Shown: positions 42,278 to 63,370 of the stretch, one piece after another
Layout of the letters: every line of letters starts with the position of its first letter
Numbering within the stretch: the first letter of the stretch is position 1
Source of the DNA: Gaiellaceae bacterium
Lineage (GTDB): Bacteria > Actinomycetota > Thermoleophilia > Gaiellales > Gaiellaceae
DNA length: 64,000 nucleotides
Direction of reading: 5' to 3'
Assembly: GCA_035999905.1 (NCBI GenBank)
Contig: DASYGK010000027.1
Span: forward strand, 11,709 to 75,708
Notes under the pieces: generated by a model
Told to the model about the DNA's origin: nothing
Databases searched by the model: none
Seen by the model: only the letters and a program-made list of their open reading frames with translations
Translations under genes and position numbers: made by a program

Positions 42278-42313
42278 TCGCGGAGTGACGATCAGGGTGT
42301 CCGGAGGTGTCGA

Positions 42314-43243
42314 TTGAGCTACGTGCTCGGCTTCAGCGTGTTCGGCGTCGACTGGCAGTTCGTCAAGCCGTTCATCGTCATCGGTCTCGCGTTCGGCGGC
42401 GTGTACGCGCTGTCCGGCGTCGGGCTGGTCGTGCTGTACCGGGCAACGGGTGTGCTCAACGTCGCGTTCGGAGCCATCGGCGCCGCCGGCGCCCTGATCG
42501 CCTATTACCTGCTGAACCACACGAGCTGCCCCGACTGGCTTGCGTTCTCGATCTGCGTCGCCTTCGGCGGGGTCGTCAATCTCGCCTACGGCATGATCTT
42601 CGGCCCCGCCTTCGCGCGACGCGATCCGCTCGTGAAGATGATGGGCACGCTCGGGCTCGCACTCATCCTCCTCGGGCTGATGGCGTGGCGGGCGCCGGCC
42701 GGCGGTGCGTTCGCGCGCTTCCTGCCGCTGCCGAGCTCCTCGCACCACTTCACCATCCTGAAGACCACCGTGAGCCTCACGCAGGTGATCGCGATCGGGC
42801 TCGCGCTCGCGATCACCACAGCAGTCAGCGTCTTCCTCCGCGTGACGAAGCTCGGCACGGCGATGCGGGCGCTCGCGAACGACCGTGACGTGACGGCCAC
42901 GCTCGGCGTGCCCGTCCGGAGGGTCGAGGCCGCCGCCTGGTTCGGCTCCGGCCTCGCCTGCGGAGCTGCCGGCCTGCTGCTGCCCGATCTCCTCACGTCG
43001 CTCGACTACTCGGCGCTCACGTTTCTCGTCATCTCCTCGCTCGCCGCCGCGCTGATCGGGCGGCTGCGCTCCCTCTGGGTCACGATGTTCGGCGGGCTCG
43101 CCGTCGGCGTCGCGCAGTCGGTGCTCAGCCCGTACGGGAACGTCTCCGCGTACCGCTCGGCGGCGCCGTTCGTGCTGGCGATCGTCGCGCTCCTCTACCT
43201 CTCGCGCAGGCGCGTCGTCACGATCTCGCGGGCCACGGGGTGA
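42314..43243 (+). CDS. Branched-chain-type ABC permease (LivH family)
   Basis: 309 aa with about 8 TM segments. The LivH pattern is present (GLAFGGVYALSGVGLVVLY, NVAFGA, TKLGTAMRALANDRD). Confidence 0.88.
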   Translation: MSYVLGFSVFGVDWQFVKPFIVIGLAFGGVYALSGVGLVVLYRATGVLNVAFGAIGAAGALIAYYLLNHTSCPDWLAFSICVAFGGVVNLAYGMIFGPAFARRDPLVKMMGTLGLALILLGLMAWRAPAGGAFARFLPLPSSSHHFTILKTTVSLTQVIAIGLALAITTAVSVFLRVTKLGTAMRALANDRDVTATLGVPVRRVEAAAWFGSGLACGAAGLLLPDLLTSLDYSALTFLVISSLAAALIGRLRSLWVTMFGGLAVGVAQSVLSPYGNVSAYRSAAPFVLAIVALLYLSRRRVVTISRATG

Positions 43244-44331
43244 GGGCTGCAGGCGCGTCCACCGGCCGCGCCGACCGGGCGCGCGCCGTGCAGAGCATCG
43301 GTAGGGCGAACGTCATCCGTGGCGTCGTCGCCGTCGCGCTGCTTGCGATCGCGATCTTCGCGCTGCCGCACCTCGCGGGCGCCGACTGGGTGACGACGTT
43401 CACGAGCGTCGCGATCTATTCCGTCGTCGCGCTCGGGTTCGGGATCCTCTACGGCAGGGTCGGCCTCATCTCGCTCGGCCAGGTCGCGCTGCTCACGATC
43501 GGCTGCTGGGTGGGTGCGCGGATCGCGTATGCGACCTCGCTGCCGTTCCCGCTGCTTCTGCTGGCGACCGGTGGCATCACCTGCGCGATCGGCGTGCTCG
43601 TCGGCCTCCCGGCGTTGCGCCTCTCCGGCCTCTATCTCGCGCTCGTCACGCTCATGTTCGCCGGTGCGACGACCGTCGTCCTTTCGGTCACCGACTTCCC
43701 GAACGGCGCCGGCGGCTTCACGGGCCGCTCCGCCACCGGTGCGTTGACCACCAGCACGCCGCCGGTGCGGAGGCCGTCGTGGGCGGTCGGGGATGTCGCG
43801 TACTACCGCTACACCGTGATCGTCGCAGCGCTGCTCTTCCTGCTCGCGCTCCTCCACGTCTCGGGCAAGCCGGGCCGCGCGTGGGCGTCGATCCGGGAGA
43901 GCGAGCCGGCGGCGCTCGCCGCGGGCGTCAACATCACGCTCTACAAGCTCTGGGCCTTCGCGCTCGCGTCCTTCGTTACCGGCGTCGCGGGCTGCCTGCT
44001 CGCGGCCCAGGTCGGCGTGCCGCGGGCGATCACGTTCCAGACGCAGGACTCGCTCACGCTCGCCGCAACCGCGCTGATCGGGGGCATCTTCAGCATCTGG
44101 GGTGCGGTCGTCGCAGGCGTCTTCAACCAGCTCCTGCCCTTTCTGTTTCAGGCCGTCTGGGGCCTCAATCCGAACTTCCTGCTGATCCTCTTCGGCGCCG
44201 GACTGCTGCAGGTGCTGCTGACCGCGCCGGGCGGCCTCGTCGAGCAGTTCCCGAAGGACATGGCGAACCTCGGCCGCCTGCTGTACCAGAGCGCGCGCCG
44301 CCTCGTGGGCGGGACGAAGAAGGCGTCGTGA
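43240..44331 (+). CDS. Branched-chain-type ABC permease (LivM family)
   Basis: 363 aa. GTGA overlap with the upstream gene. LivM blocks are present (YGRVGLISLGQVA, LPALRLSGLYLALVTLMFA, GRAWASIRESE.AA...G). Confidence 0.88.
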   Translation: MRAAGASTGRADRARAVQSIGRANVIRGVVAVALLAIAIFALPHLAGADWVTTFTSVAIYSVVALGFGILYGRVGLISLGQVALLTIGCWVGARIAYATSLPFPLLLLATGGITCAIGVLVGLPALRLSGLYLALVTLMFAGATTVVLSVTDFPNGAGGFTGRSATGALTTSTPPVRRPSWAVGDVAYYRYTVIVAALLFLLALLHVSGKPGRAWASIRESEPAALAAGVNITLYKLWAFALASFVTGVAGCLLAAQVGVPRAITFQTQDSLTLAATALIGGIFSIWGAVVAGVFNQLLPFLFQAVWGLNPNFLLILFGAGLLQVLLTAPGGLVEQFPKDMANLGRLLYQSARRLVGGTKKAS

Positions 44332-45044
44332 TCGAGGTCGCCGGTCTCACCGTCCGCTTCGCGGGCGTCACGCCGATCGACGACATGAGCGTGACGTTCC
44401 CCGGCGGCACGTGCGGCCTCATCGGCCCGAACGGCGCCGGCAAGACGACCTTCTTCAACGTGCTCAGCGGGTTCGTCAAGCCCGCAGCGGGCACGGTCAG
44501 CGCATTCGGAGAGAACGTGCTCGCGATGGCCGACTTCAGGCGCGCGCGCTGGGGACTGCGCCGGACGTTCCAGACCGAGATGGCGATCGAGAAGCTTTCC
44601 GTCTACGACAACGTTGCGATGATCCACGAGCACTCGGGTGCGAAGCGCGCGTCGCGCCGGCCCGACGTGCTGAGCGCGATCGAGTTCGTCGGTCTCGACG
44701 CGTCGCCGAAGGCCAAGGTCGGGACGCTCGGTGCGCGCGAACGGCGGCTCGTCGAGGTGGCGCGCGCCGTGGTGGGAAGCCCCCGCGTCGTCCTCCTGGA
44801 CGAGCCGGCGGCCGGCCTGCCGGACGAGGAGACGGAACAGCTCGGCGCGGTGATCAAGCGTATCCCGGAGCAGTTCGGCGCGCTCGTGATCCTCGTCGAC
44901 CACGACATGAGCCTCGTCTCGGGCTGCTGCGAGACGACGGCGGTGCTCGACTTCGGCAAGCTGATCGCCTCGGGACCGACGGCGCACGTGCTGCGCGACG
45001 AGCACGTGATGCGCGCGTACCTCGGTACGGCGGAGGAGCTGTGA
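44328..45044 (+). CDS. ABC ATP-binding protein (LivG family)
   Basis: 238-aa tail of track ORF 43779..45044, from GTG 44328 (GTGA overlap). Walker A GPNGAGKTT, Walker B VLLDEPAAGL. Confidence 0.9.
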   Translation: MIEVAGLTVRFAGVTPIDDMSVTFPGGTCGLIGPNGAGKTTFFNVLSGFVKPAAGTVSAFGENVLAMADFRRARWGLRRTFQTEMAIEKLSVYDNVAMIHEHSGAKRASRRPDVLSAIEFVGLDASPKAKVGTLGARERRLVEVARAVVGSPRVVLLDEPAAGLPDEETEQLGAVIKRIPEQFGALVILVDHDMSLVSGCCETTAVLDFGKLIASGPTAHVLRDEHVMRAYLGTAEEL

Positions 45045-45808
45045 CGGACGCCGGCCCGACGCTGCGCCTCGACGGTCTCACGGTCGCGCGGGGAGGGCGG
45101 CCGGTCGTGCGCGACGTCTCGCTCGAGATCCCGCCGGCGCAGGTGACGACGCTGCTCGGCGCGAACGGCGCCGGCAAGTCGACGCTCGTCCTGTCGGTCG
45201 CGGGCCTGCTGCGGCCGAGCGCGGGGCGCGTGCTGCTGGGCGACCGCGACCTCACGCGCCTGCGGCCCGAGCAGGTGCGCACGGCGGGTGTCGCGGTCGT
45301 GCCGGAGGGGCGCCGCCTGCTGCCGGAGCTCACCGTGGAGGACAACCTCCGTGTCGCGACGTACGCGCTGTCGAGCGCGCACGCGAAGGAAGGCATCGCG
45401 TACGCACTCGAGCTCTTCCCCGAGCTCGAGAAGCGCTGGACAGCGCCGGCGCGGCTGCTCTCCGGCGGCGAGCAGCAGATGGTCGTGCTCGCGCAGGCGC
45501 TCGCCGCCCGGCCGAAGATCCTGCTCGTCGACGAGCTCTCGCTCGGTCTAGCGCCGGTCGTCGTCAAGCGTCTCGTCCCGACGCTCCAGACGGTGGCTGC
45601 GGAGGGTGTCGGCGTCCTGCTGATCGAGCAATTCGCACACGTCGCCCTGGCGCTCGCGGAGACGGCGTACGTCATCGAGGGAGGCCGCATCCGCTACAGC
45701 GGCACCTCGCAGAAGCTGAGGGACGAGCCCGAGCTCCTGCGTTCGGCCTACCTGCTCCGCGACATGGAGGCCAAGGCGACGCCCGGCCTCGACGTCGACC
45801 TGATCTAG
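45041..45808 (+). CDS. ABC ATP-binding protein (LivF family)
   Basis: 255-aa tail of track ORF 44411..45808, from GTG 45041 (GTGA overlap). Walker A GANGAGKST, signature LSGGEQQM, Walker B LLVDELSLGL. Confidence 0.9.
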   Translation: MTDAGPTLRLDGLTVARGGRPVVRDVSLEIPPAQVTTLLGANGAGKSTLVLSVAGLLRPSAGRVLLGDRDLTRLRPEQVRTAGVAVVPEGRRLLPELTVEDNLRVATYALSSAHAKEGIAYALELFPELEKRWTAPARLLSGGEQQMVVLAQALAARPKILLVDELSLGLAPVVVKRLVPTLQTVAAEGVGVLLIEQFAHVALALAETAYVIEGGRIRYSGTSQKLRDEPELLRSAYLLRDMEAKATPGLDVDLI

Positions 45809-46815
45809 GGCACGAGCACGGCGCGGCCGGTGACCTCGCCGTCGCGGAGCTTCGCGAGCACGTCGTTCACGTCGGCGAGCGGATGGGTCTCGGTCTTCAG
45901 GACGACCTTCCCTGCGGCATGGAGCTGCAGGAGCTCCCAGAGATCGACCCACGTGCCGACGAGGTTGCCGACCACCGCGTGCTCGTTGACGACGAGCGCG
46001 CCCGACGGGATCGAGATCGTTCCGCCGTAGCCGATCACCGAATACGTCCCGCCGCGCGCGAGGATCGCCGCCGAGTCCGCGTGCGTCTGGTCCGTGCCGA
46101 CGAAGTCGAACACGATGTCCGCTCCTCGTCCGCCGGTCGCGTCGCGCACCGCGTCCGCGCTCGGGACGACCTCGTCCGCGCCGAGCTCCGCGGCGAGGCG
46201 GCGCCTGCGCTCGTCCGTGTCCACCGCGATCACCGTGCTCGATCCGAGCGTGCGCACGAGTTGCAGCGCGATGTGCCCGACGCCGCCAACGCCGATCACG
46301 GCCGCCGTCGTCCCCGGGGTCGCGAGATGTGCGAGCTTTCGCACCGCGTGGTACGCGGTGAGCCCCGCGTCGGCGTGCGGTGCGACCGCTGCCGGCTCGA
46401 CACCGGCGGGTAGCCGGACGAGCGAGCGCTCCGACACGAGCACGTAGTCGGCGAACCCGCCGTCGACGGAGAGCCCCGTGAACTGATGACGGTCGCAGTG
46501 CATGTCGTTGCCGCGGCGGCACGCGACGCAGAGGCCGCAGCTGTACGGCGGATAGACGAGCACGGCGTCGCCCGGTGCGACCGTCGTCACCCCGTCACCC
46601 GTCTCCTCGACCCAGCCCGCGTTCTCGTGGCCGAGCACGCGCGGCAGCGTCACGCCGGCGGGCTCCATCAGGCCCTCCATCGCGTGCAGGTCGGTGGCGC
46701 AGACGCCGGCGCCGCCGATCCGCACGAGCACGTCGTTCGGGCGCGCGACCTCGGGCACGGGACGCTCGACGAGCTCGAGCGGCCGATGGTACTCGCGCAT
46801 GAGTGCGGCTCTCAT
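45805..46815 (-). CDS. Zinc-dependent alcohol dehydrogenase (MDR family)
   Basis: 336-aa tail of track ORF 45805..47736, from ATG 46815. Catalytic zinc block GVCATDLH...GHENAGWV, structural zinc Cys cluster CGLCVACRRGNDMHC, Rossmann motif VIGVGGVGH. Confidence 0.88.
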   Translation of the reverse strand: MRAALMREYHRPLELVERPVPEVARPNDVLVRIGGAGVCATDLHAMEGLMEPAGVTLPRVLGHENAGWVEETGDGVTTVAPGDAVLVYPPYSCGLCVACRRGNDMHCDRHQFTGLSVDGGFADYVLVSERSLVRLPAGVEPAAVAPHADAGLTAYHAVRKLAHLATPGTTAAVIGVGGVGHIALQLVRTLGSSTVIAVDTDERRRRLAAELGADEVVPSADAVRDATGGRGADIVFDFVGTDQTHADSAAILARGGTYSVIGYGGTISIPSGALVVNEHAVVGNLVGTWVDLWELLQLHAAGKVVLKTETHPLADVNDVLAKLRDGEVTGRAVLVP

Positions 46816-48419
46816 GCCCTGAACTCCGCGTCCTGCGCAACGGTGACCTCGAGCACGAGCGGCTCCTTTCGCGTAGGCAGGCTCGGGACGATCTCGTCGA
46901 GCGCCGCGTGCAGCTCGTCGAGCGTCTCGATCTCGCGCGCCGCGCAGCCGAAGCTGCGCGCGAGCCCGGAGATGTCGACGTTCACTGCGGGCCACGGCCC
47001 CGAGCCGCCGTGGATCTCGGCGAGGCGGTCCATGATCGCGTAGCCGCCGTTCGAGAGGACGACGAAGAGCGCGCCCGCGTCGTACTGGGCGGCGCTCCAG
47101 AGCGCTTGGATCGAGTAGAGCGACGATCCGTCGCCGACGATCGCGACGACCGGGCGCGCCGGGAGCGCCATCCGCAGGCCGGCGGCCGCGGGCATCGCGA
47201 AGCCGAGGCCGCCCATCGCGGGGCTGAGCGACGCGAGCGGGACGCGCGCGGGGATGCGCGCGAGCAGCTCGGCGCGGCTCGACGGCGACTCCTCGATCAC
47301 GATCGCGTCGCGCGGCAGCCGTTCCGCGAGCGCGTGCAGGACGTGTGCGACGCGCATGGGCTCTCCGGCGGCGGGCGGAGGCGGCGGCGCGGACGGCGCG
47401 AACGGCTCTCCGGGCGGTGCGGTGCGCGCCGGCACGAGCTTCGCGAGCTCGGCGCACACGGCGGCGGGGTGCGCGATCACCGCGAGATCGGCTGCGCTGC
47501 GGTGCACCTCCGCCGCGTCGCGGCTGACGACGGCGACGCGCGTGCCGGCCTCGACGAACGGCCCCGGCGCGAACGGGTACTGGCGAAAGGCGGGGCCGCC
47601 GACGACGAGCAGCACGTCGTATGGTGCGAGCACGTCGCGAAGGCGTCTGCGGTCGGCGGGGAGGTGGCCCGCGAAGAGGGGATGGTCCTGGGGGAAGCCG
47701 GCACTGCCGCCGAACGGCTCCTGCCAGACGGGGCACGCGAGCCGCTCGGCCAGTGCGAGCAGCGCGTCCCAGCTCTCCGGCTCGTCGGCGAACGAGCCTG
47801 CGACGAGCGCGGGGCGCTCCGAGCCGGCGAGGAATGCGGTGAGCGCGCCCATCGTCGCCGGGTCGACTCCGGCGGCGTGGAGCACGCGCCGCGGTGCGAG
47901 CCGCTCCGCGGGGTCACCGGCTTCGGCCATCCAATCGTCCATCGGCACGATCACGACCGCCGGGCCGCGGCCGGCGACGGACTCGTGGTACGCGCGTGCG
48001 ACAGCGGCAGGCACGTCCTGCGCGCGCACGGGCTCGTCGACCCACACGGGATACTCGCCCGCCAGGCCGCGCAGCTTGCCCGCGAGGAACGGCTGCGCCG
48101 CGAGGTGGCGGCGGTCCTGCTGGCCCACGATCACGACGAGCGGCGCGCGGTTCACGCGCGCGGTGGCGAGGGCCGAGATGCCGTTCGCGTAACCGGCCGT
48201 CGTGTGCAGGATCGCGAGCGCCGGCCGGCCGCGGCCGAGCGCATAGCCGATCGCCATTCCGACGACCGAGCTCTCGTGCAGGCCGAGCACGAAATGCAAA
48301 TCGTCCGGCAGGTCCGCGAGGAGCATGATCTCGGTCGAGCCCGGGTTCGCAAAGAGCGTCGTGAGCTCGTATTCGCGCAGGACGTCGAACGTCGCGTCGC
48401 GGACCGTCCTGACCGTCAT
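46812..48419 (-). CDS. Thiamine-diphosphate enzyme, benzoylformate decarboxylase-like
   Basis: 535 aa. The N-terminal block (LFANPGSTEI..L.......FVLGLHE..VVGMA.GYA) resembles benzoylformate decarboxylase (MdlC) as I remember it. TPP-binding motif IVGDGSSLYS...SNGGY. Confidence 0.8.
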   Translation of the reverse strand: MTVRTVRDATFDVLREYELTTLFANPGSTEIMLLADLPDDLHFVLGLHESSVVGMAIGYALGRGRPALAILHTTAGYANGISALATARVNRAPLVVIVGQQDRRHLAAQPFLAGKLRGLAGEYPVWVDEPVRAQDVPAAVARAYHESVAGRGPAVVIVPMDDWMAEAGDPAERLAPRRVLHAAGVDPATMGALTAFLAGSERPALVAGSFADEPESWDALLALAERLACPVWQEPFGGSAGFPQDHPLFAGHLPADRRRLRDVLAPYDVLLVVGGPAFRQYPFAPGPFVEAGTRVAVVSRDAAEVHRSAADLAVIAHPAAVCAELAKLVPARTAPPGEPFAPSAPPPPPAAGEPMRVAHVLHALAERLPRDAIVIEESPSSRAELLARIPARVPLASLSPAMGGLGFAMPAAAGLRMALPARPVVAIVGDGSSLYSIQALWSAAQYDAGALFVVLSNGGYAIMDRLAEIHGGSGPWPAVNVDISGLARSFGCAAREIETLDELHAALDEIVPSLPTRKEPLVLEVTVAQDAEFRA

Positions 48420-49406
48420 CTACCGGGCCTCCCTTCGTGTGAGCCTCCGTACTGCGGCGACGATGTCGTCTGCGCCTGGAACATACGCGTCCTCGAGGGG
48501 AGCGCTGAACGGAATGGGGGCGAAGGGAGCACCCACGCGCACGACGGGGGCGTCGAGGTAGTCGAATGCCGCGGCCTGCACCTGCGCTGCGATCTCGGCG
48601 CCGAAGCCGCCGTGCGTGACGGCTTCGTGCGCGACGACGATCCGCCCCGTGCGCTCGACGGACTCGACGATCGCCGCGAGGTCGAGCGGTACGAGCGTGC
48701 GCAGGTCGATCACTTCGGCCCCGACCCCGTCCTCGGCGGCGAGCCGCTCGGCCGCCGCGAGAGCCGCGTCGACGAGGGCGGAGAATGCGACGATCGTGAC
48801 GTCGCCGCCGCTCCGGAGCGTCGCGGCCTTGCCGATCGGCACCGCGGGCACGGGATCGGGAACCTCGCCCTTGCGGAAGTAGAGCGTCTTGTTCTCGATG
48901 AAGACGACGGGATTCGGATCGGCGATCGCGCTCGCGAGCAGCCCGGCGGCGTCGGCCGGCCCGCTCGGCATCACCACCTTGAGCCCCGGAACGTGCGTGA
49001 GCCAGCTTTCGAGGCTCTGCGAGTGCTGCGCGGCGCCGCGGTGGCCGGCTCCGCCCTGCGTGCGCAGCACCATCGGCACGGTGAGCTGGCCGCCGGACAT
49101 GAAGTGCGCCTTTGCCGCGGCGTTCACGAGCTGGTCGAGCGCGAGCGTGATGAAGTCGATGAACATGATCTCGAGCACCGGGCGCATGCCGGACTGCGCC
49201 GCGCCGATCGCGACGCCGGTGATCGCCGCTTCGGAGATCGGCGTGTTGATCACGCGCGCGGTGCCGAACTCCTCGGCGAGGCCCGCGGTCGCGGTGTAGG
49301 GGCCGCCTTCGGCGACGTCCTCGCCGAGCACGAACACGCGCGGGTCTGCGCGCATCGCGGCGGCGAGCGCGCCGGTGATCGCCTTGATCGTCGTCGTCTC
49401 AGGCAT
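48420..49406 (-). CDS. 2-oxoacid/acetoin dehydrogenase E1 component beta subunit (pair 1)
   Basis: 328 aa. Transketolase-like pyrimidine-binding and C-terminal domains (VINTPISEAAITGVAIGAA, VPGLKVVMPS). Its stop abuts the downstream start with no gap. Confidence 0.88.
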   Translation of the reverse strand: MPETTTIKAITGALAAAMRADPRVFVLGEDVAEGGPYTATAGLAEEFGTARVINTPISEAAITGVAIGAAQSGMRPVLEIMFIDFITLALDQLVNAAAKAHFMSGGQLTVPMVLRTQGGAGHRGAAQHSQSLESWLTHVPGLKVVMPSGPADAAGLLASAIADPNPVVFIENKTLYFRKGEVPDPVPAVPIGKAATLRSGGDVTIVAFSALVDAALAAAERLAAEDGVGAEVIDLRTLVPLDLAAIVESVERTGRIVVAHEAVTHGGFGAEIAAQVQAAAFDYLDAPVVRVGAPFAPIPFSAPLEDAYVPGADDIVAAVRRLTRREAR

Positions 49407-50373
49407 GCGCGTAGACCATCTCGCCGGTCAGGCCGTCGGGCGGGAACGGGCTCGCGCGCGCGTATGCGGTCGCCTGCTCGACCGCGGCGGCGGCTTCGGC
49501 TTCGAGCTTCGCGGGCACGTCGTCGCCGAACCAGCCCGCCGCGATCCCGTGGCGCTGCAGCCGGAGGATCGGATCCTTCTGCTGCCAGTCGTCGGCGGCG
49601 AGCGCCTCGCGATACCTGCCGGGGTCACCCTCGTAGTGGCCGCGCAGCCGGTGCGTGAGGCACTCGAGCAGGAACGGGCCCTCGCCCGTGCGCGCTGCGG
49701 CGAGGAAGCGGCCGAACGCGTCCCACACTGCGAGCACGTCGTTGCCGTCGACGGTCTCGCGCTCGACGTCGTACGGCGCGACGACGTCGCTGACGCGCTC
49801 GACGTTCGTGTGCGCGGAGCGCGGCGTGAACTCCGCGAAGCCGTTGTTCTCGCAGACGAGGATGAGCGGCAGGCCCCACAGCGTGGCGAGGTTCACCGTC
49901 TCGTTGAAGTGGCCGGCCTGTACCGCGCCGTCGCCGAAGAACACGACGGCGACCGCGTCGTCGCCGCGCAGCCGGGCAGCGAGTGCGCTGCCGAGCGCGA
50001 TCGGGATCGTGCCGCCGACAACGCCCGTCGCGCCCATGAACCCGTGCGCGGCGTCGACGACGTGCATCGAGCCTCCGAGCCCGCGGCACAGGCCGCCGTC
50101 GCGCCCCATCAGCTCCGCGAGCAGGCGGTCGAGCGGCGCCCCCTTGGCGATCGCGTGGCCGTGCGCACGGTGGCCGGAGTACACCGCGTCGTCGTCGCGG
50201 AGCTGCGTGCACACCGCGGCGGCGACGCCTTCCTGGCCGGTGCTGAGATGCACGAGCCCGTGCAGCTCGTTCGCGCGCGCGAGCGCGCCGACCTGCTCCT
50301 CGAAGAGGCGGATGCGCCACATCGTCGCGAGCAGGCGCTGGGCCTGCTCGCGATCGAGTGACGATGCTGCCAC
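49399..50373 (-). CDS. 2-oxoacid/acetoin dehydrogenase E1 component alpha subunit (pair 1)
   Basis: 324-aa tail of track ORF 49399..50781, from GTG 50373. TPP motif FFGDGAVQAGHFNETVNLATLWGLPLILVCENNGFA. Confidence 0.88.
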   Translation of the reverse strand: MAASSLDREQAQRLLATMWRIRLFEEQVGALARANELHGLVHLSTGQEGVAAAVCTQLRDDDAVYSGHRAHGHAIAKGAPLDRLLAELMGRDGGLCRGLGGSMHVVDAAHGFMGATGVVGGTIPIALGSALAARLRGDDAVAVVFFGDGAVQAGHFNETVNLATLWGLPLILVCENNGFAEFTPRSAHTNVERVSDVVAPYDVERETVDGNDVLAVWDAFGRFLAAARTGEGPFLLECLTHRLRGHYEGDPGRYREALAADDWQQKDPILRLQRHGIAAGWFGDDVPAKLEAEAAAAVEQATAYARASPFPPDGLTGEMVYAHA

Positions 50374-51353
50374 TACGCCGTGACGGGTGCCGACCCGACG
50401 ACCTGCTGCACGGCGGAGACGATCTTGTCCTCGTTCGGCATGATCCACGCCTCGAGCGGCTCGCTGTACGGGACGGTCGCGTCGAGCGCCGTGACCTGCA
50501 CGATCGGCGCCTTCAACGACGAGAACCCGTGCTCGGCGACCTCGCCGGCGATCACCGTCGAGGCCGACGCGTGCCGCGTCGCCTGGTCGACGAGGACGAG
50601 CCGCCCGGTCTTGTCGACCGATTCGAGGATGGTCTGCGTGTCGAGCGGCGCGAGCGTACGCGGGTCGATCACCTCGGCCTGGATGCCCTGCGCAGCGAGC
50701 TGCTCCGCGGCGCCGAGCGCACGGTCGACCGTCCAGCCGGTGGCGACGATCGTCACGTCGCTGCCCTCGCGCCGGATGCACGCCTCGCCGAACGGCACGA
50801 GATACTCGCCGTCGGGCACTTCGCCGTGCTCGAGCGTGAGGAGGTAGTGGTGGAGGTAGACGACCGGGTTGTCGTCGCGGATCGCCGTCGCCATCAATCC
50901 CTTCGCGTCGGCCGCCGTCGACGGCATCACGACCTTCAGGCCGGGCACGCCCATGAAGAGCGCGCCGATCGTGCCCGTGTGCTGGCCGGCCCAGCCCGCG
51001 GTGAAGCCGAACCCGGCCTTCAGCACGAGCGGCACCTTGACCTGGCCGCCGCTCATCGCGCGGAAGCGCGGCGCCTCGTTGATCACCTGGTCCATGGCGA
51101 CGAGCATGAACTCGGCCATGTAGAGCTCGACCACCGGCCGGTAGCCGGCGACCGCAGCGCCGATCGCCATGCCGATCTCGGCCGTCTCGGAGATCGGCGT
51201 GACGCGCACGCGGTCGGAGCCGAACGCGTCGACGTACGGCTCGTTCTCCGTCGTCGCCATGTTCTGCCCGAAGTAGAGAACGGTGTCGTCGCGCTCCATC
51301 TCGAGCCGGATCGCCTCGTCGATGGCGGCGATGAAAGGCAGTTCGTGTGCCAT
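50373..51353 (-). CDS. 2-oxoacid/acetoin dehydrogenase E1 component beta subunit (pair 2)
   Basis: 326-aa tail of track ORF 50373..52004, from ATG 51353. It shares the fold blocks of pair 1 (TPISETAEIGMAIGAA, VPGLKVVMPS) but is clearly divergent in sequence. Confidence 0.88.
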   Translation of the reverse strand: MAHELPFIAAIDEAIRLEMERDDTVLYFGQNMATTENEPYVDAFGSDRVRVTPISETAEIGMAIGAAVAGYRPVVELYMAEFMLVAMDQVINEAPRFRAMSGGQVKVPLVLKAGFGFTAGWAGQHTGTIGALFMGVPGLKVVMPSTAADAKGLMATAIRDDNPVVYLHHYLLTLEHGEVPDGEYLVPFGEACIRREGSDVTIVATGWTVDRALGAAEQLAAQGIQAEVIDPRTLAPLDTQTILESVDKTGRLVLVDQATRHASASTVIAGEVAEHGFSSLKAPIVQVTALDATVPYSEPLEAWIMPNEDKIVSAVQQVVGSAPVTA

Positions 51354-51370
51354 GGTCTCGATCGCCTCCT

Positions 51371-52411
51371 TTAGGCGTAGACGTACTCGAGGGACGACTC
51401 GACGTCGGGGAACGGGCTGTCGAGCCCGAAGCTCACCGCGCCCTGCATCTCGTCGCGCACGCGCGCGGCGATCGCTTCCGCCTCGTCGGCGGTGAGCGTG
51501 CCGTCGCCGACGAGCCGGCCGCGGAACGCCGGCACCGGGTCGCCGGCGAGTGCGGCTTCGTACTCCTCCGGTGCGCCGAACTTCTCGATCGCCTCGTGCT
51601 CGGGGAAGTGGAGCGGCACGCCGGGCGGCGCGATGATGTTGCCGTGCGCCGAGAGGCGGTACATCTGCGACTCGACGAGCGTCGGGCCGTCTCCGGCACG
51701 CGCACGTGTCACCGCAGCGCCGACCGTCTCGTACACCTCGACCGGGTCGCGCCCGTCGATCGTCACGCCGGGCATGCTGAATGCCTTCGCCTTGACGGAG
51801 AGGTCTTCGCCGTTGGCGCGGTTCGCGTCCTCCTGCTCGGTGCGCGTGTGGACGTTGTAGCCGTTGTTCTCCATCACGAACACGATGGGGAGCTTCCAGA
51901 GCGACGCGATGTTGAGTGATTCGGAGAACGCGCCCTGCTTCGATGCGCCGTCGCCGAAGAAGCAGAGGACGACCTGCCTCTGCTTGCGGATCTGCGCGGC
52001 CCATGCGGCGCCGGTCGCGTGGGGGATGCCCGCCGCGACGATGCCCGACGTGCCCATGAAGCCGTTCGAGACGTCGGTGAGGTGCATCGAGCCGCCGATG
52101 CCCTTGCAGAGCCCGTCCTTGCGCCCGTAGATCTCCGCCATCATCTTCTTCGGGTCGGTGCCGCGCGCGAGCGGGTAGCCGTGGCAGCGGTACGTCGCGA
52201 AGAACTGGTCGTCGGGCTCGAGCGTCGCGATCGAGCCGACGATCGACGCCTCGGCGCCGTCGGCGAGATGCGTGTGGCCGCGGATGACGCCGGGATGCTC
52301 GACGAACGTCCGCTTGACGCGCTCCTCGAACTCGCGGATCCGCAGCATCTGCTCGTACATCCAGACGAGGCGGTCGCGGTCGAGCTCCTTCACTCCCTTC
52401 GGTGCGCTCAC
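51371..52411 (-). CDS. 2-oxoacid/acetoin dehydrogenase E1 component alpha subunit (pair 2)
   Basis: 346-aa tail of the 1543-aa track ORF 51371..56002, from GTG 52411 (4-nt overlap with the upstream gene). TPP motif FFGDGASKQGAFSESLNIASLWKLPIVFVMENNGYN. Confidence 0.88.
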   Translation of the reverse strand: MSAPKGVKELDRDRLVWMYEQMLRIREFEERVKRTFVEHPGVIRGHTHLADGAEASIVGSIATLEPDDQFFATYRCHGYPLARGTDPKKMMAEIYGRKDGLCKGIGGSMHLTDVSNGFMGTSGIVAAGIPHATGAAWAAQIRKQRQVVLCFFGDGASKQGAFSESLNIASLWKLPIVFVMENNGYNVHTRTEQEDANRANGEDLSVKAKAFSMPGVTIDGRDPVEVYETVGAAVTRARAGDGPTLVESQMYRLSAHGNIIAPPGVPLHFPEHEAIEKFGAPEEYEAALAGDPVPAFRGRLVGDGTLTADEAEAIAARVRDEMQGAVSFGLDSPFPDVESSLEYVYA

Positions 52412-53286
52412 GTGGAGCTCCTCTCGTGTCCGAATTGGGCGGCGGTCGTCTCGTATGCCCGCCGGAAGATGACGTCGATCGGATTGTTGCGCAAGTCGTC
52501 CGAGAGCACCTCGACGCCCCACGGCCCGCTGTAGCCGTGGTCGACGCACGTGTCGACGTAGCCGCCGAGGTCGAACTCGCCCTCGCCGGGCAGCGCGCGG
52601 TGGTTGACGGTCTCGTCGACGAGGTCGTCCATGCTCTCGAGCCGTCCGTCGCTCAGCTCGATCCAGGAGAGATACTCGAGCGGGACGCGGCGGAGGTCCT
52701 CCGGCGGGATGCCGAGCTTCGTCATGTGCCACGTGTCGATCGCGAGGCCGCCGTTCGGCGCGGCTGCGCCCTCGACGATCGTGAGTGCGGCGTCGAGCGT
52801 CTTGACGTTCTCGTCGAACGGCATGAACTCGTACACGACCTTCGCATCGGTGTGCTGCGCGGCGTCCTCGCAGAGCTCGCCGAAGCGCTCGGTGAGCTGC
52901 GCGAGCCCGCACGGCGCGCCCGGGATGTTCCCGACCTTGATGTGATGCGCTCCGAGCACGGCGGACGCGTCGAAGAGCAGCCGCCGGATCGTGTCGGACG
53001 CGCGGCGGCGGTCGTCGTCCTCGTCGAGGAACCAGTCCATCAGGAACTCGAGCTCGAGGTGCCGGAGCCCGTTGTCGTCGAACGTGGACTTCAGGTCCTG
53101 CAGGCTCTGCGTCTCGAGCGAGTGCTGCAGGTCTGCGTGCCAGATGCCGAGCCCCGCGAAGCCGACCTTGCGAGCCTCGGTGCAGCGGTCGGCCCAGCTG
53201 AAGAGGCTCCACTCCCGCCCGACGTGCACCTCGACCGGCCCGGAGACCGTCCAGTAGAGGCCGAGCAGCTCGACGTCGTCGCTCAC
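52408..53286 (-). CDS. Xylose-isomerase-like TIM-barrel protein (sugar-phosphate isomerase/epimerase family; dehydratase-type function possible)
   Basis: 292 aa. The pattern of acidic/His metal-ligand blocks (HIKVGN, YEFMPF, IDTWH, WIELSD) is typical of the AP-endonuclease-2/xylose-isomerase TIM fold. The specific activity is not deducible. Confidence 0.7.
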   Translation of the reverse strand: MSDDVELLGLYWTVSGPVEVHVGREWSLFSWADRCTEARKVGFAGLGIWHADLQHSLETQSLQDLKSTFDDNGLRHLELEFLMDWFLDEDDDRRRASDTIRRLLFDASAVLGAHHIKVGNIPGAPCGLAQLTERFGELCEDAAQHTDAKVVYEFMPFDENVKTLDAALTIVEGAAAPNGGLAIDTWHMTKLGIPPEDLRRVPLEYLSWIELSDGRLESMDDLVDETVNHRALPGEGEFDLGGYVDTCVDHGYSGPWGVEVLSDDLRNNPIDVIFRRAYETTAAQFGHERSST

Positions 53287-53295
53287 TCCGCCCGC

Positions 53296-54663
53296 CTAGT
53301 GCGGCCGGTACGAGGCGCGGACGACCTCGGCGTAGGGGACCGGCGACACGATCGCGCGGATCTCGGTCTGCACGTGACGCTCGACGACCGGCTTGTCGGA
53401 GCCGCCGTTCTCCTCGCCCCAGATGAGCGTGACCTCGGTGCCCGGCTCTGCCTGCTCGACGTTCACGATCGCGAGCGACAGCATCGAGCTCTCGTTCGAG
53501 CTGTAGCCGGAGAACGTCGACACGCCGACCATCTTCCCGTCCTTGAGGATCTTGTCGTTCGGCCAGGTCGAGTAGTTCGAGAGCGGCAGGTCGATGTACT
53601 TCGCGCGGTTCTCCTTCTGGAACATCGTCCCCATCGCGCGGGCGACGTCCTCGCCGTTCCAGGCGAGCGTGACCTTCTTCCGCTTCGGCTCGCCCATCTT
53701 CTCGAGCGCCTCGCGCCCGGTGAAGTCGTGGTCGTAGCGCACGAACGACCCGTAGCCGAGGTCCCACGGCGTGAGGTAGTAGTCGCGGATGTCGTTCGAG
53801 TAGAAGCTGCCGCCGAGCGAGCCCGTGCCCTCGTAGCCCTGCGCGGGCAGCCATTCGCGGTACGACTTCAGGTCGTCGCCCGTGAACACCGCCGGCAGCG
53901 GGCATGGGATCCAGCCGGACTCGAGCGTGTTCGTCGCGTAGACGCGCGAGCCGACCTGCGCGAGCCCGAACTCCTTGCCCGCCTCGACGATCGCAGCGCG
54001 AACGTCGTCGCCCTCCGCCCACGGCCCGAAGAGCTCGAGGCCGGGAACGCCCGACATGCCGTGATGCAGCGCGCGCACCTTGTGGCCGCCGATCGTGAGC
54101 TCGCCCATGTTGAAGAACTTGATCTCGGGGAGCGCGCCGCCGTTGACCTTCTTCAGGACCTCGTTCGCGGTCGGGCCCTGCACCTGGAAGCGGTAGAGCC
54201 GGCGGCCGGTCGGGTTGACGGCGGAGCGCTCGTCGCGCTCGAACGTCACGTCGTAGTCGCCCGTCTCGCCGTGGAACTGCACCCAGTTGTGCGCCGACGG
54301 CCGGCCGACGAGGCTGAGCGTGTTCTCGTCGAGGAAGAAGAGGATGGCGTCGCCGATCACGTAGCCGTCGTAGTTGACGGCGACGAACTGCTTCGCCTTG
54401 TCGACGGCGAACGTCGCGAAGCTGTTGACGCCGGTGGCCTCGAGCAGCTTCAGCGCGTCGGGGCCCTTGATCGTGAGGTCGGTCATGTGGTGCGACTGGT
54501 CGAAGAGACAGCAGGTCTCCCGCCAGGCGTGCTGCTCGTCGCGCCAGTTCGTGAACTCGCCCGGGACCTTGGGGTAGACGTACGGGCCGATCTGCGAGTT
54601 CCGGACGAGCTCGACCGGATTCCCTACGGCGTCCAGCAGGTCTTGCAGGCTCTGAGAACTCAT
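53296..54663 (-). CDS. GcvT/aminomethyltransferase-family, tetrahydrofolate-dependent aryl O-demethylase (LigM/DesA-like)
   Basis: 455 aa. Blocks match my recollection of Sphingobium LigM/DesA: LVRNSQIGPYVYP, NWRDEQHAWRE, LFDQSHHM, KFFNM, LHHGMSGVPGLELFGP, EAGKEFGL.QVGSR.Y..NTLESGWIP.PLPA, YREWLPA, KKVTLAWNGEDV, LIWGEENGG and VSPVPY. Confidence 0.82.
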   Translation of the reverse strand: MSSQSLQDLLDAVGNPVELVRNSQIGPYVYPKVPGEFTNWRDEQHAWRETCCLFDQSHHMTDLTIKGPDALKLLEATGVNSFATFAVDKAKQFVAVNYDGYVIGDAILFFLDENTLSLVGRPSAHNWVQFHGETGDYDVTFERDERSAVNPTGRRLYRFQVQGPTANEVLKKVNGGALPEIKFFNMGELTIGGHKVRALHHGMSGVPGLELFGPWAEGDDVRAAIVEAGKEFGLAQVGSRVYATNTLESGWIPCPLPAVFTGDDLKSYREWLPAQGYEGTGSLGGSFYSNDIRDYYLTPWDLGYGSFVRYDHDFTGREALEKMGEPKRKKVTLAWNGEDVARAMGTMFQKENRAKYIDLPLSNYSTWPNDKILKDGKMVGVSTFSGYSSNESSMLSLAIVNVEQAEPGTEVTLIWGEENGGSDKPVVERHVQTEIRAIVSPVPYAEVVRASYRPH

Positions 54664-54798
54664 GGCTGCGAACGACTCCTTGTCTCGGCCGATTCCTCGG
54701 GTTGGTGGAGCTCCCGGACGTCCCAGCTGTCAGGATTCCGGTCGTGCAGGTGTCGGCCCGCCGTCCGGGCACACCGAGCCGGACACTCTCAAGGCACC

Positions 54799-54814
54799 TC
54801 CCGTTTGTCAAGAC
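54799..54814. promoter_or_regulatory. Box C: TCCCGTTTGTCAAGAC (third copy of the shared 16-nt box)
   Basis: It lies in the divergent region between the demethylase operon and iclR, 5 nt upstream of the iclR -35 candidate. The minus strand reads GTCTTGACAAACGGGA, with a perfect TTGACA facing the demethylase gene. The octamer TCAAGGCA (54789-54796) also recurs at 40557-40564. Confidence 0.5.
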
Positions 54815-54818
54815 GGTG

Positions 54819-54856
54819 TTCCAATTGATGGAACGCTGCGCTAGGATGCGCGCGTG
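54819..54856 (+). promoter_or_regulatory. Candidate leaderless promoter of the iclR gene, with a GTTCCA/TGGAAC palindrome
   Basis: TTCCAA (54819-54824), 17-nt spacer, TAGGAT (54842-54847), 6 nt, then GTG 54854. The inverted repeat GTTCCAattgaTGGAAC (54818-54834) overlaps the -35 and the spacer. Confidence 0.4.
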
Positions 54857-55663
54857 GAGAGCCGAGGCTCTGACGGGGGCACGGGGACGTCGCAGTCCTT
54901 GGAACGCGGCCTCGCGATCCTCTCCTCGTTCCATTCCGACCGGCCGCTGATCGGTGTCAGCGAGCTCTCGCGCGACCTCGAGCTGAGCCGGAGCACCGCG
55001 CACCGCTACGTCGCGACGCTCGCGAAGCTCGGCTATCTCCAGCAGGACGCCGAGTCGAAGCGCTACCGGCTCGGCCCGAAGGTGCTCGACCTCGGCTTCT
55101 CGGCGCTCAACTCGATGGAGCTCGTCGAGATCTCGGCGCCGCACCTCCGGCGGCTGAGCGACGAGACCGGCCGCACCGTCAACCTCGCGATCCTCGACGG
55201 CATCGACGTCGTCTACATCGAGCGCTACCGGACGGCGCAGCAGGGCCAGCGCGAGATCGACCTCAACCTCCACGTCGGCGCGCGGCTCCCGGCGTACTGC
55301 ACGGCGATGGGGAAGGCGATCCTCGCGTTCGTCCCCGAGGAGCAGCTTGCCGGCGTCCTTCCTCAGATCGACTTCGTGCCGCGCGGGCCGAACACGCTCA
55401 CGAGCCCCAGTGCGTTCCGCGCCGAGCTCGCGAAGATCCGCAGCGCGGGGCTCGCCGTGAACGACGAGGAGCTCGCATACGGGCTGCGCTCGATCGCGGC
55501 GCCGATCTACTCGCACTCGGGCGAGGTGATCGCGGCGCTCAACCTCGCGGTGCACCGCACCATGGCGTCGATGGACGAGATGGTCGCGCGCTTCGGCCCT
55601 GCGGTGATCAAGTCGGCGCAGGAGATCTCGCAGAGCATGGGGCACAGGCCCGCCACCGTCTGA
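54854..55663 (+). CDS. IclR-family transcriptional regulator (PcaR/PobR-like)
   Basis: 269 aa. N-terminal wHTH (SLERGLAILSSF....LIGVSELSRDLELSRSTAHRYVATLAKLGYL) and a C-terminal IclR effector domain (GLAVNDEELAYGLRSIAAPI). Confidence 0.88.
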   Translation: MESRGSDGGTGTSQSLERGLAILSSFHSDRPLIGVSELSRDLELSRSTAHRYVATLAKLGYLQQDAESKRYRLGPKVLDLGFSALNSMELVEISAPHLRRLSDETGRTVNLAILDGIDVVYIERYRTAQQGQREIDLNLHVGARLPAYCTAMGKAILAFVPEEQLAGVLPQIDFVPRGPNTLTSPSAFRAELAKIRSAGLAVNDEELAYGLRSIAAPIYSHSGEVIAALNLAVHRTMASMDEMVARFGPAVIKSAQEISQSMGHRPATV

Positions 55664-57639: not shown

Positions 57640-58358
57640 AGCTGCTCGAGCCACGCCGCCGCGGCCGACGCGATGCGCGGCTCGACGCCGAGCTCTTCGA
57701 GGTACGCGGCCGCCGCCTGCATCTCGTCGACGCGCCGGGCCGCATGCGCGTGGCTGCCCGACACGAGCCGCTCGAGCAGCGGCTCCCCGAGCACCGCGGC
57801 GATCTCGTCGCGGATGCGGTCCTCGGCGCCCGCCGCGCGCGCCGCCTCGAGGCTCTCGATCGCGGCGGCCGCCATCCCCTTCATGAAGACGCTCCGCAGC
57901 AGCTTCAGGCCCGCCGCGTCGCCGGGCTCCGGCCCGACGACCTCGACCGGCATCCCGAGCGGGACGAGGAGCTCGGCGAAGCGCGCCGCTCCCGCGCCCG
58001 ACGCGAGCGCCGGCGTCGCGAGCCCCGTGCTCGGGACGATGCCGAGCAGCGCGACGTCGGCGAACGGCACCGGCAGCGCCGCCGCGAGCTCGCGCTTGAG
58101 CGCCGGTGCGCTCGTGTTGAGATCGGCGTACACCGCGCCCGCGTCGAGCGCGCCCCCGACCTCGCGTGCGACGTCGGCCGCGACCGCCGCGGCGTTCACG
58201 CTCAGCACGGCCTCGGCGCCCGCGACCGCGTCCGCCGCGCTCTCGACTCCCTCGACCCGGTGTGCGGGATCCCAGCCGCGCACGACGCAGCCTGCCGCGG
58301 CGAGGTCGGCGGCGAGTCGTCCGCCCGCCTCCCCGAGCCCGAGGACGGCGACCCGCAT
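57636..58358 (-). CDS. NAD(P)-binding oxidoreductase (6-phosphogluconate-dehydrogenase-like N-domain plus DUF1932-like C-domain)
   Basis: 240-aa tail of track ORF 57636..59345, from ATG 58358. Rossmann N-terminus MRVAVLGLGEAGGRLA, then LKLLRSVFMKGM in the helical C-domain. Confidence 0.6.
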   Translation of the reverse strand: MRVAVLGLGEAGGRLAADLAAAGCVVRGWDPAHRVEGVESAADAVAGAEAVLSVNAAAVAADVAREVGGALDAGAVYADLNTSAPALKRELAAALPVPFADVALLGIVPSTGLATPALASGAGAARFAELLVPLGMPVEVVGPEPGDAAGLKLLRSVFMKGMAAAAIESLEAARAAGAEDRIRDEIAAVLGEPLLERLVSGSHAHAARRVDEMQAAAAYLEELGVEPRIASAAAAWLEQL

Positions 58359-63330: not shown

Positions 63331-63370
63331 CGCCCGATGATAAATCAGGCAGACTGATATCGGAAATGCG

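Follow-up and report, generated by a model that had tools for sequence, protein, structure and literature searches.

A TIM-barrel protein and tandem E1 pairs without a linked E2 form the conserved core of a mosaic operon in an aromatic-catabolic island of Gaiellaceae

A stretch of 64,000 nucleotides from a Gaiellaceae bacterium (contig DASYGK010000027.1, positions 11,709 to 75,708; referred to here as the window) carries eight co-directional genes on its minus strand, which join a LigM-like O-demethylase to a xylose-isomerase-like TIM-barrel protein (hereafter TIM), two E1 pairs dependent on thiamine diphosphate (ThDP), a benzoylformate decarboxylase (BFD)-like enzyme and a zinc-dependent alcohol dehydrogenase (ADH). 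This raises the question of whether the eight genes constitute a single pathway and upon what they act. The original prediction for this locus had interpreted them as one module that shortens the side chains of methoxylated aryl keto compounds and delivers the products to O-demethylation and the neighbouring protocatechuate genes. Of that interpretation, the aromatic context, the gene families and the role of LigM stood, while the single eight-gene pathway did not. All eight genes belong to one transcription unit within an aromatic-catabolic island of Gaiellaceae, yet this unit is a lineage-specific join of modules, in which the conserved part is TIM-E1α2-E1β2(-E1α1-E1β1). The class concerned, Thermoleophilia (Gaiellales, Solirubrobacterales), consists of abundant and almost entirely uncultured soil bacteria, the carbon sources of which are poorly known.

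Third-position GC frame analysis and inspection of start codons showed that the eight genes (g1 to g8 in the order of transcription) fill positions 45805–54663 exactly, with intergenic distances of 9, −4, 17, −1, −8, 0 and −4 nt, in agreement with the small gaps and overlaps noted originally. A terminator scan found one terminator-like site within the operon against 1.7 expected by chance, and a sigma-70 promoter scan of the region 45300–55200 gave no site. With the G+C content of the window at ~71%, raw ORF lists are full of frame artefacts. Just beyond g8, the minus-strand ORF 44854–45690 was rejected as spurious, since it runs across the plus-strand LivF gene and matches no family. Gene families were called by Pfam and NCBIfam scans, with NCBIfam equivalog cutoffs applied, and the family assignments originally made for all eight genes hold, as does the lack of an E2 gene.

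Relatives of the locus were collected by a genome scan (one genome per species) with a narrow TIM alignment (A2; the broader A1 was too diverse), which returned 553 TIM-family relatives. The best 80 of these were taken for a locus comparison by tblastn with the window proteins and by label-free clustering of all locus genes, and the counts that follow are over the 63 loci with full 10-kb flanks. The TIM proteins of the best 80 loci have 65–82% identity, and almost all of them come from metagenome-assembled genomes (MAGs) labelled as Gaiellales, Solirubrobacterales or other Thermoleophilia/Actinomycetota, the one exception being labelled Streptosporangiaceae; across Thermoleophilia as a whole, identity to the TIM of the window is 65–83%. 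Metagenomes contain thousands of further TIM relatives, of which the best 120 are 76–100% identical, the named ones belonging to Gaiellaceae/Gaiellales MAGs. TIM is present in 63/63 loci, E1α2/E1β2 in 59/63, E1α1 in 53/63 and E1β1 in 52/63; the five-gene order TIM-α2-β2-α1-β1 is contiguous in 41 loci, and five hold TIM with α2β2 only. LigM was found in 28/63 loci (directly upstream of TIM in 21), ADH in 22/63 and BFD in 8/63. This comparison of gene order thus shows a mosaic rather than one dedicated pathway, with LigM, BFD and ADH being accessory, separated or absent.

The arrangement around the core also differs between lineages. The two closest relatives (L014 and L016 of the locus comparison) have the order LigM-TIM-α2-β2-α1-β1-GMC-BFD-ADH, which is that of the window with an additional GMC oxidoreductase gene. 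Other Gaiellaceae carry a GMC gene and an opposite-strand Ldh-like gene between the core and BFD, and a GntR regulator gene between BFD and ADH. A second Gaiellales clade (clade B) has a single operon of TIM-α2-β2-α1-β1-DUF1932-DUF6282-PIG-L-RraA-extradiol dioxygenase with gaps of a few nt, LigM being located downstream and divergent GMC and aldehyde dehydrogenase (ALDH) genes upstream. In Solirubrobacterales, an alpha/beta hydrolase gene precedes the core and the Liv-type transporter that is also present in the window directly follows it. There, genes encoding two phosphoenolpyruvate-utilising kinase subunits, a biotin carboxylase in three parts and a HAD phosphatase stand back to back with the core, a set that corresponds in composition to hpeHI-CBA-D of the acetovanillone/4-hydroxyacetophenone pathway (PMC9618137). 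It should also be noted that in L039, L043, L048 and other Solirubrobacterales the full hpeHI-CBA-D-like set (kinase subunits, biotin carboxyl carrier protein, biotin carboxylase, carboxyltransferase and HAD phosphatase) lies divergently ~0–8 kb upstream of TIM, with no hpeE or hpeF nearby and with the TIM-E1 genes occupying the place expected for hpeEF. Recurrent neighbours of the core encode ALDH, GMC oxidoreductase, a polyol-type Zn-ADH, a molybdenum-dependent aldehyde oxidoreductase, a DpgC-like arylacetyl-CoA dioxygenase and a flavoprotein resembling vanillyl-alcohol oxidase (VAO) and PCMH, the last being assigned by eye from sequence with only weak GlcD-type matches in NCBIfam. All of them indicate a context of aromatic compounds whose side chains are oxygenated.

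Within the core, g3 (51371–52411, minus strand, 346 aa; Pfam E1_dh, 218 bits) encodes the divergent ThDP E1 alpha subunit E1α2, and g4 (50373–51353, minus strand, 326 aa; Transket_pyr 85 bits, Transketolase_C 125 bits) encodes E1β2. These are followed by g5 (49399–50373, minus strand, 324 aa; E1_dh, 225 bits) for the canonical AcoA/PdhA-like E1α1 and g6 (48420–49406, minus strand, 328 aa; Transket_pyr 160 bits, Transketolase_C 128 bits) for E1β1. The two pairs are 36–46% identical to each other, with α1 and α2 36–38% identical. Both alpha subunits keep the ThDP motif GDG...NN (GDG...ENNGY in g3) and both beta subunits the cofactor-activating Glu of the motif PISE (TPISE in g4). The α2 clade is marked by a 4-residue and a roughly 14-residue insertion, the longer one being located right after the conserved His, where the clade-specific sequence SAHGNIIAPPGVPLHFPEHE replaces the canonical GH(Y/F)xGDPxxYR; the α1 loop is canonical (HRLRGHYEGDPGRYR, of the GHYEGDPxxYR type). 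Across residues ~252–280 of α2, the canonical loop after the His is replaced in this clade by AHGNIIAPPGVPLHFPEHEAIEKFG, and an insertion of QEDAN follows the ENNGY motif; both changes are kept in a 73%-identical orthologue on contig L090.

The α2β2 pair is the most conserved part of the locus in Gaiellales, at 84–96% identity (α2 alone 84–94%), with 71–81% in Solirubrobacterales (α2 alone 72–78%). In some genomes E1α2 and E1β2 appear to be naturally fused (L001/L021). Apparent fusions of E1α2-E1β2 (~676–689 aa) and E1α1-E1β1 (~691 aa) were seen at 10862–12892 in L001/L021, 10815–12884 in L040, 12906–14912 in L017 and 12960–15035 in L048; their linkers are partly frameshift-like, and some of the fusions may be assembly errors. 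Against plasmid sequences, the E1 alphas retrieved only generic E1s with ≤47% identity by tblastn, and one Novosphingobium plasmid locus holds E1α/β genes without TIM.

No E2, lipoyl or E3 gene was detected in the window or within 10 kb in any of the 80 loci using tblastn with AcoC and lipoyl queries and a motif scan, and none of their ORFs bears the DHRxxDG motif. In this the system differs from the pyruvate dehydrogenase (PDH) and branched-chain 2-oxoacid dehydrogenase (BCKDH) complexes, which have an E3 and an E2 with a lipoyl domain and DHRxxDG core. It resembles acetoin dehydrogenase (AcoA/AcoB/AcoC/AcoL) in that ThDP E1 alpha and beta subunits of the heterotetramer type are present, here twice over, with their cofactor motifs intact, and in that the flanking secondary-alcohol dehydrogenases parallel butanediol dehydrogenase. 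However, neither AcoC nor AcoL nor a lipoyl protein accompanies the core in the window or the 80 loci, AcoC being found only in the distant L092; the two tandem E1 pairs are non-identical, the α2 active-site loop is remodelled, a TIM-barrel partner is obligatory, and the context is aromatic instead of butanediol/acetoin.

That partner, g2 (52408–53286, minus strand, 292 aa; Pfam AP_endonuc_2), is a metal-dependent xylose-isomerase-like TIM barrel to which the original prediction gave no role. It is the gene most tightly coupled to E1α2β2. Its start overlaps nothing upstream and its stop overlaps the start of g3 by 4 nt. On contig L090, a 51%-identical TIM gene likewise overlaps an α2 orthologue (73%), which is followed by a β2 orthologue (81%). 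A 47%-identical homologue occurs on the 5.8-kb contig L092 in the order TIM-SDR-E1α-E1β-AcoC-SDR (SDR, short-chain dehydrogenase/reductase), with no aromatic genes, and the AcoC encoded there combines a lipoyl domain and an alpha/beta hydrolase in one protein, as is characteristic of the E2 of acetoin dehydrogenase systems. With a TIM homologue inside a genuine AcoA-AcoB-AcoC operon, the aco-type (alpha-hydroxyketone) reading of the E1s that had been put forward originally gains support. Other homologues with 40–46% identity lie beside SDRs, a pyrroloquinoline quinone-dependent alcohol dehydrogenase, ALDH or aromatic hydroxylases. In view of these contexts, the TIM family shows a recurrent link both to secondary-alcohol dehydrogenases and to ThDP E1 systems, one of them of the acyloin type.

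When the g2 family profile was compared with the PDB, the nearest structure was Lmo2234 (function unknown), then the dehydroshikimate dehydratase QuiC1 and then the inosose isomerase IolI; AsbF scored 32.6 bits with the profile. With these TIM barrels g2 shares its Pfam family and the conserved acidic columns of the metal site, the invariant acidic and His columns being E153, D184, H187, E210, D213 and E259. It differs from them in that the similarity is distant, in that the third-metal-ligand position is an invariant Glu as judged by a spacing estimate, and in its tight translational coupling to a ThDP E1. It is proposed that g2 may be a ketol isomerase/epimerase, or else a dehydratase. A role for TIM and the GMC oxidoreductase as C-glycoside deglycosidase or 3-keto-sugar eliminase was rejected, as the family profile retrieves no such structures and there is no sugar transporter.

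Of the accessory genes, g1 (53296–54663, minus strand, 455 aa; Pfam GCV_T, 141 bits) heads the operon and belongs to the LigM/DesA family of tetrahydrofolate (THF)-dependent aryl O-demethylases. It passes the NCBIfam model for LigM (NF047885, 639 bits, cutoff 580) and falls below that for DesA (NF047633, 700 bits, cutoff 800), and it aligns over its full length to the LigM structures of SYK-6 (5x1i/5tl4, 542 bits). The alignment shows equivalents of Tyr247, Arg122, Tyr29 and Tyr31 within the motifs IGPYVYP, VGRPSA and SRVYATN; we take Tyr247 to be catalytic and Tyr29, Tyr31 and Arg122 to lie in the substrate site. By these matches, g1 is very likely a demethylase of the vanillate/3-O-methylgallate/syringate type, in line with the predicted role of LigM in feeding the adjacent pca genes. 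As in SYK-6, there are genes for a methylenetetrahydrofolate reductase (MTHFR) and for protocatechuate cleavage nearby, a context that fits THF-dependent demethylation. Unlike its SYK-6 counterparts, g1 is actinobacterial, scores between the LigM and DesA models, which leaves vanillate, syringate or 3-O-methylgallate as substrate, and stands first in an operon that also encodes ThDP enzymes, an arrangement shared by only some of the relatives. An exact-sequence look-up of g1 returned no record.

The BFD-family ThDP enzyme g7 (46812–48419, minus strand, 535 aa) has three ThDP domains in Pfam, and its strong PDB matches are all BFDs aligned end to end at 300–314 bits, including 6qsi of P. fluorescens. 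Equivalents of BFD Ser26, Glu28, Glu47 and His70 are kept, and g7 is a probable aroylformate (aryl-glyoxylate) decarboxylase. In relatives, BFD occurs together with an Ldh-like 2-hydroxyacid dehydrogenase and a GntR regulator, resembling a mandelate-type module with MdlC (the benzoylformate or 4-hydroxybenzoylformate decarboxylase of mandelate and aryl-C2 pathways; 1bfd, 6qsi). The differences from MdlC are a score below the equivalog cutoff, a Tyr at the position of His281, the absence of mandelate racemase and MdlB, and the joining of g7 into an operon with E1 enzymes. It is also known that BFD-type enzymes turn vanillyl glyoxylate into vanillin in vivo (bioRxiv 10.64898/2026.08.18.745639). 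Near the core of six Solirubrobacterales loci (e.g., L043 692–2083, L047 2915–4255), a DpgC-like protein of the (3,5-dihydroxyphenyl)acetyl-CoA 1,2-dioxygenase family was observed (393 bits, cutoff 530); enzymes of the DpgC type yield aryl-glyoxylates, the substrate class of BFD. The last gene of the operon, g8 (45805–46815, minus strand, 336 aa; ADH_N and ADH_zinc_N), encodes the Zn-dependent medium-chain ADH, which reached no NCBIfam equivalog cutoff and which is 65–91% identical to its orthologues in the 22 loci mentioned above.

The lignin-type aromatic setting that had been proposed is supported by the last 30 kb of the window, which form an aromatic-catabolic island. The neighbouring protocatechuate genes pobA, pcaC, pcaD, pcaB, pcaG and pcaH are real (34325–38894) and, together with a CoA-transferase pair, constitute a beta-ketoadipate funnel on the minus strand (34325–40425); PobA (560 bits, cutoff 538.7), PcaH (346, cutoff 296), PcaG (152, cutoff 126) and PcaC (185, cutoff 156) exceed their NCBIfam cutoffs. 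A Liv-type ABC transporter with a Peripla_BP_6 binding protein, two permeases and two ATPases (41030–45808, plus strand) is convergent with the operon, the stop of g8 overlapping that of LivF at 45805–45808. On the other side, a divergent IclR-family regulator of the PcaR/PcaU/PobR type (54854–55663, plus strand; HTH_IclR and IclR_C) is followed by an acetoacetate-CoA-ligase-family enzyme (55663–57639, plus strand; NF002937, 850 bits), which is proposed to be an HpeE-like aroylacetate (hydroxyphenyl-beta-ketopropionate) CoA ligase. HpeE is an acetoacetyl-CoA-synthetase homologue, the closest characterised enzyme being the acetoacetyl-CoA synthetase of S. meliloti, and HpeF is a CouO-type hydrolase (PMC9618137). 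In relatives, the HpeE-like ligase gene is followed by an Amidohydro_2 gene, matching HpeF/CouO.

When set against the Hpe/Acv pathway of R. rhodochrous GD02 and SYK-6, the locus is therefore alike in the HpeE-like ligase adjoining the operon, in the HpeF/CouO-like gene adjoining the ligase in relatives and in the hpeHI-CBA-D-like set back to back with the core in Solirubrobacterales. It is unlike in that the HpeHI/CBA/D-like kinase, carboxylase and phosphatase genes are absent from the window, where the HpeE-like ligase and a distant Amidohydro_2 gene are the sole counterparts, and in that the Hpe/Acv pathway has no ThDP enzyme or TIM barrel, so that its link to the core is one of neighbourhood only. 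The Amidohydro_2 gene of the window (1418–2284, plus strand) lies 53 kb away beside an amidase gene and is 64% identical to the HpeF/CouO-like gene found after the CoA ligase in relatives. Further upstream of the operon, a minus-strand cluster at 57636–63699 encodes an unknown protein of 243 aa, a GMC oxidoreductase, a type I extradiol dioxygenase that scores 316 bits on the model for catechol 2,3-dioxygenase (cutoff 320), DUF6282, a PIG-L/LmbE-like protein, an RraA-type 4-carboxy-4-hydroxy-2-oxoadipate (CHA) aldolase that passes its cutoff, and an NAD-binding/DUF1932 protein; this cluster is kept beside the core in 26–35 of the 63 loci. At the edge of the window is the 5' part of an MTHFR-like gene (63371–64000, plus strand; NF006396, 85.6 bits), which is 79% identical to the MTHFR/DUF5981 gene beside LigM in relatives. 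The enzyme likely recycles the methyl-THF made by LigM.

From the observed gene order, families, conservation pattern and context, we infer the substrates, the role of TIM and the mode of the E1s (lyase or with a remote E2) as parts of a modular funnel, in which TIM and the two E1s would serve to cleave side chains of the alpha-ketol, diketone or 2-oxo type on aryl compounds derived from plants or lignin. This is the preferred reading, although it is held tentatively, at somewhat less than an even chance. In it, the core (TIM, E1α2β2 and E1α1β1) would be an E2-less relative of the acetoin/2-oxoacid dehydrogenase E1 systems. Alcohol, GMC or polyol dehydrogenases would convert an aryl C2/C3 side chain to a ketol or diketone, and the metal-dependent TIM would interconvert positional isomers or epimers of the ketol via an enediolate, like IolI and the ketose 3-epimerases of the same Pfam family. 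Two E1 heterotetramers of differing regio- or stereo-specificity would then cut the C–C bond adjoining the carbonyl group, in candidate substrates such as aryl alpha-hydroxyketones, 1,2-diketones or 2-oxoacids. Acting as lyases or with an unlinked E2, they would give an aryl aldehyde or acyl unit and a C1/C2 fragment, and neighbouring ALDHs would oxidise the aldehyde. As a second module, the BFD-like enzyme and ADH could convert aroylformates to aryl aldehydes in a mandelate-type branch, and the HpeE-like ligase could handle aroylacetates. The ALDH/ADH, BFD and HpeE-like branches would converge on vanillate or 4-hydroxybenzoate. In the third module, LigM with THF would demethylate the vanillate-type acid to protocatechuate, which PobA would likewise supply and which would enter the beta-ketoadipate genes by way of pcaHG or else the extradiol/aldolase cluster, with MTHFR recycling methyl-THF. 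The island suggests that in Thermoleophilia protocatechuate is the point of entry for methoxylated and p-hydroxyphenyl compounds that bear oxygenated side chains.

A more specific and more doubtful proposal is that TIM and the tandem E2-less E1s are the missing system for Cα/Cβ cleavage of lignin-derived aryl ketols and diketones (Hibbert-ketone-type C6-C3, C6-C2). It would amount to a new ThDP lyase made from dehydrogenase E1 subunits, in which a ketol isomerase/epimerase feeds two regio- or stereo-specific E1s. For reduced G-diketone (Hibbert ketones, diols), the enzyme responsible for side-chain cleavage has been stated to be unknown, and the two ketol isomers are known to interconvert (PMC8612281). 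The core is a concrete candidate for this open step in lignin-monomer catabolism. If the proposal is true, this gap in lignin catabolism is filled by a system carried by hundreds of uncultured soil Thermoleophilia species, and a new class of ThDP lyases/carboligases becomes available for aromatic acyloins in biocatalysis. Every component comes from a known family, and no published description of the combination was found in a literature search, in keeping with the original prediction, which did not recognise the gene combination as a described pathway. What is new is the E2-less tandem E1 pair, its obligatory coupling to a TIM barrel and its placement in aromatic-catabolic islands of an abundant uncultured soil class. 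The TIM-E1-E1 core is an uncharacterised enzyme system in many species-level genomes, and even with another substrate, E1s that lack a linked E2 and have a TIM barrel as their obligatory partner represent a mechanistic variant of interest.

A number of observations weigh against the funnel as set out above. The core substrates are wholly inferred, and the organisms are uncultured. As no E2 is linked, the E1s would have to be lyases, which is unusual for the family, or depend on an unlinked E2. E1β1 is 50% identical to the Aco-type E1 beta of L092 and 48% to an archaeal one that has a conventional E2, so that by sequence similarity acyloin and 2-oxoacid specificity of α1β1 are not separable. 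The nearest characterised relatives of g2 use carbocyclic keto-polyols (dehydroshikimate, inosose). TIM homologues with 37–41% identity sit in inositol/hydroxyquinol-type clusters and not in aryl-ketol clusters, namely on plasmids of Rhodococcus opacus (L084), Rhizobium leguminosarum (pRLN2; L085) and Azospirillum oryzae (L089), where their neighbours encode inositol 2-dehydrogenase or SDR, sugar ABC transporters, an intradiol (hydroxyquinol-type) dioxygenase and maleylacetate reductase. The TIM branch in question may, as these neighbours suggest, aromatise an inosose-type compound to hydroxyquinol. For the second module, g7 stays below the BFD equivalog (NF005485, 459.6 bits, cutoff 493) and has the His281 substitution; saturation mutagenesis of BFD has reportedly shown that this residue is not strictly essential.

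The alternative that survives best, though it is judged unlikely, is that both E1 pairs are ordinary oxidative E1s which dock on a remote E2/E3 and convert aromatic 2-oxoacids (aroylformate, arylpyruvate, aroylpyruvate) to acyl-CoAs, with TIM as an auxiliary tautomerase or isomerase. The best family and PDB matches of the E1s are indeed PDH/BCKDH E1 subunits, both alphas retain the His of the GH loop, and Actinomycetota are known to share E2 between complexes. A 41%-identical TIM homologue on a Halobaculum magnesiiphilum plasmid (L086, 4399–9074) is also divergent from genes for E1α, E1β, a lipoyl protein and an E2 catalytic subunit. This haloarchaeal TIM is annotated with 403 aa and so is extended, and the operon is one of the 'orphan' haloarchaeal 2-oxoacid-dehydrogenase-like operons. 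However, the E2/lipoyl gene is missing from 80 loci in which the rest of the pathway is clustered, and some loci already hold BFD as a dedicated non-oxidative aroylformate decarboxylase. The α2 loop is moreover remodelled exactly where an E1 alpha meets the lipoyl arm, and the TIM-linked relative in L092 uses AcoC, an acyloin-system E2.

It is likewise rather unlikely that the core acts on a non-aromatic ketol, whether cyclic or aliphatic, for example acetoin or an acid of the hydroaromatic or cyclitol kind (similar to quinate/shikimate or inosose), with TIM as a dehydratase making the aromatic ring or enol, the E1s opening or trimming the ketol and the aromatic genes taking the product. The closeness of TIM to QuiC1 and IolI and the plasmid clusters with inositol dehydrogenases, sugar transporters, hydroxyquinol dioxygenase and maleylacetate reductase would be explained by this, as would the two SDRs and lack of aromatic genes in L092; the polyol-type Zn-ADH and the GMC enzyme, which is similar to FAD-glucose dehydrogenase, also resemble polyol dehydrogenases. 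Yet g2 reaches only 67.7 bits on the QuiC model NF042435 (cutoff 1200) and is thus not placed among dehydroshikimate dehydratases, and no dehydroquinase or shikimate dehydrogenase was recognised in the related loci. The Thermoleophilia loci also lack IolG/Gfo-type dehydrogenases, sugar-type transporters and hydroxyquinol genes, carrying instead Hpe-like, VAO-like, LigM and ALDH genes and a Liv-type (carboxylate/aromatic-type) transporter.

It is very improbable that the core acts after ring cleavage, on aliphatic dicarbonyl or 2-oxoacid fragments from the extradiol/aldolase enzymes. The clade B operon, in which the genes of the core and of ring cleavage are strung together with gaps of only a few nt, is in favour of this, but an upper-then-lower pathway order within one operon is common, and in Solirubrobacterales the core has no ring-cleavage genes nearby. 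RraA-type aldolases acting on CHA or 4-hydroxy-4-methyl-2-oxoglutarate give pyruvate and oxaloacetate or pyruvate, which need no special E1. The related possibility that the E1s cleave diacetyl-type fragments after ring fission of acyl-catechols is given a low likelihood, for the same reason in Solirubrobacterales and since RraA-type aldolases require a 4-carboxylate. Lastly, a linear, co-evolved eight-gene pathway with three ThDP systems in series before O-demethylation has the tight spacing here and the order kept in L014 and L016 (with the extra GMC) in its favour, but is largely refuted by synteny and highly unlikely, given the low counts of BFD, ADH and LigM against 59/63 for the core, the BFD and ADH genes with their own GntR regulator and opposite-strand Ldh in other relatives, and the Solirubrobacterales core that stands alone with a transporter.

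As regards regulation, the region between g1 and the IclR gene holds the palindrome GTTCCAATTGATGGAAC (54818–54834), a candidate IclR operator with a single exact match in the window. A site of the GTTCCA-N5-TGGAAC type adjoins the IclR gene in 7 of 22 IclR-bearing loci and is usually the sole match in 20 kb; as a perfect palindrome it was noted in the window and in L014, L015, L020, L023, L025 and L028. Its placement is the same whether the neighbouring gene is LigM or TIM, and because the palindrome is kept upstream of either, a single regulator for the whole unit is suggested by the sequence. The divergent IclR gene, which scores 241.8 bits on TIGR02431 (cutoff 284.75), probably controls the operon. 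The stop of the IclR gene and the start of the CoA-ligase gene share one base (55663), and so the two are probably co-transcribed.

Aside from the core and its regulator, the cluster at 57636–63699 resembles a non-canonical meta pathway of the protocatechuate-4,5/gallate type, with three of its steps carried out by families of unknown function. Its GMC oxidoreductase gene (61526–62971) is preceded by that of a small protein without a family match (62968–63699), an arrangement similar to that at 27–1711 in L004, and the two may form a two-subunit flavoprotein dehydrogenase. The PDB matches of the GMC oxidoreductase are weak and limited to the catalytic subunits of FAD-glucose/fructose dehydrogenases, which are multi-subunit enzymes, and are uninformative on the substrate. 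A PDB search with the binding protein of the Liv-type transporter gave no match, and Rfam and tRNA scans of the whole window found nothing. The first 34 kb of the window are of a housekeeping nature, with genes for Lon, a sigma factor, GGDEF proteins, transporters and SucA (18597–21422), the last being the only further E1 in the window.

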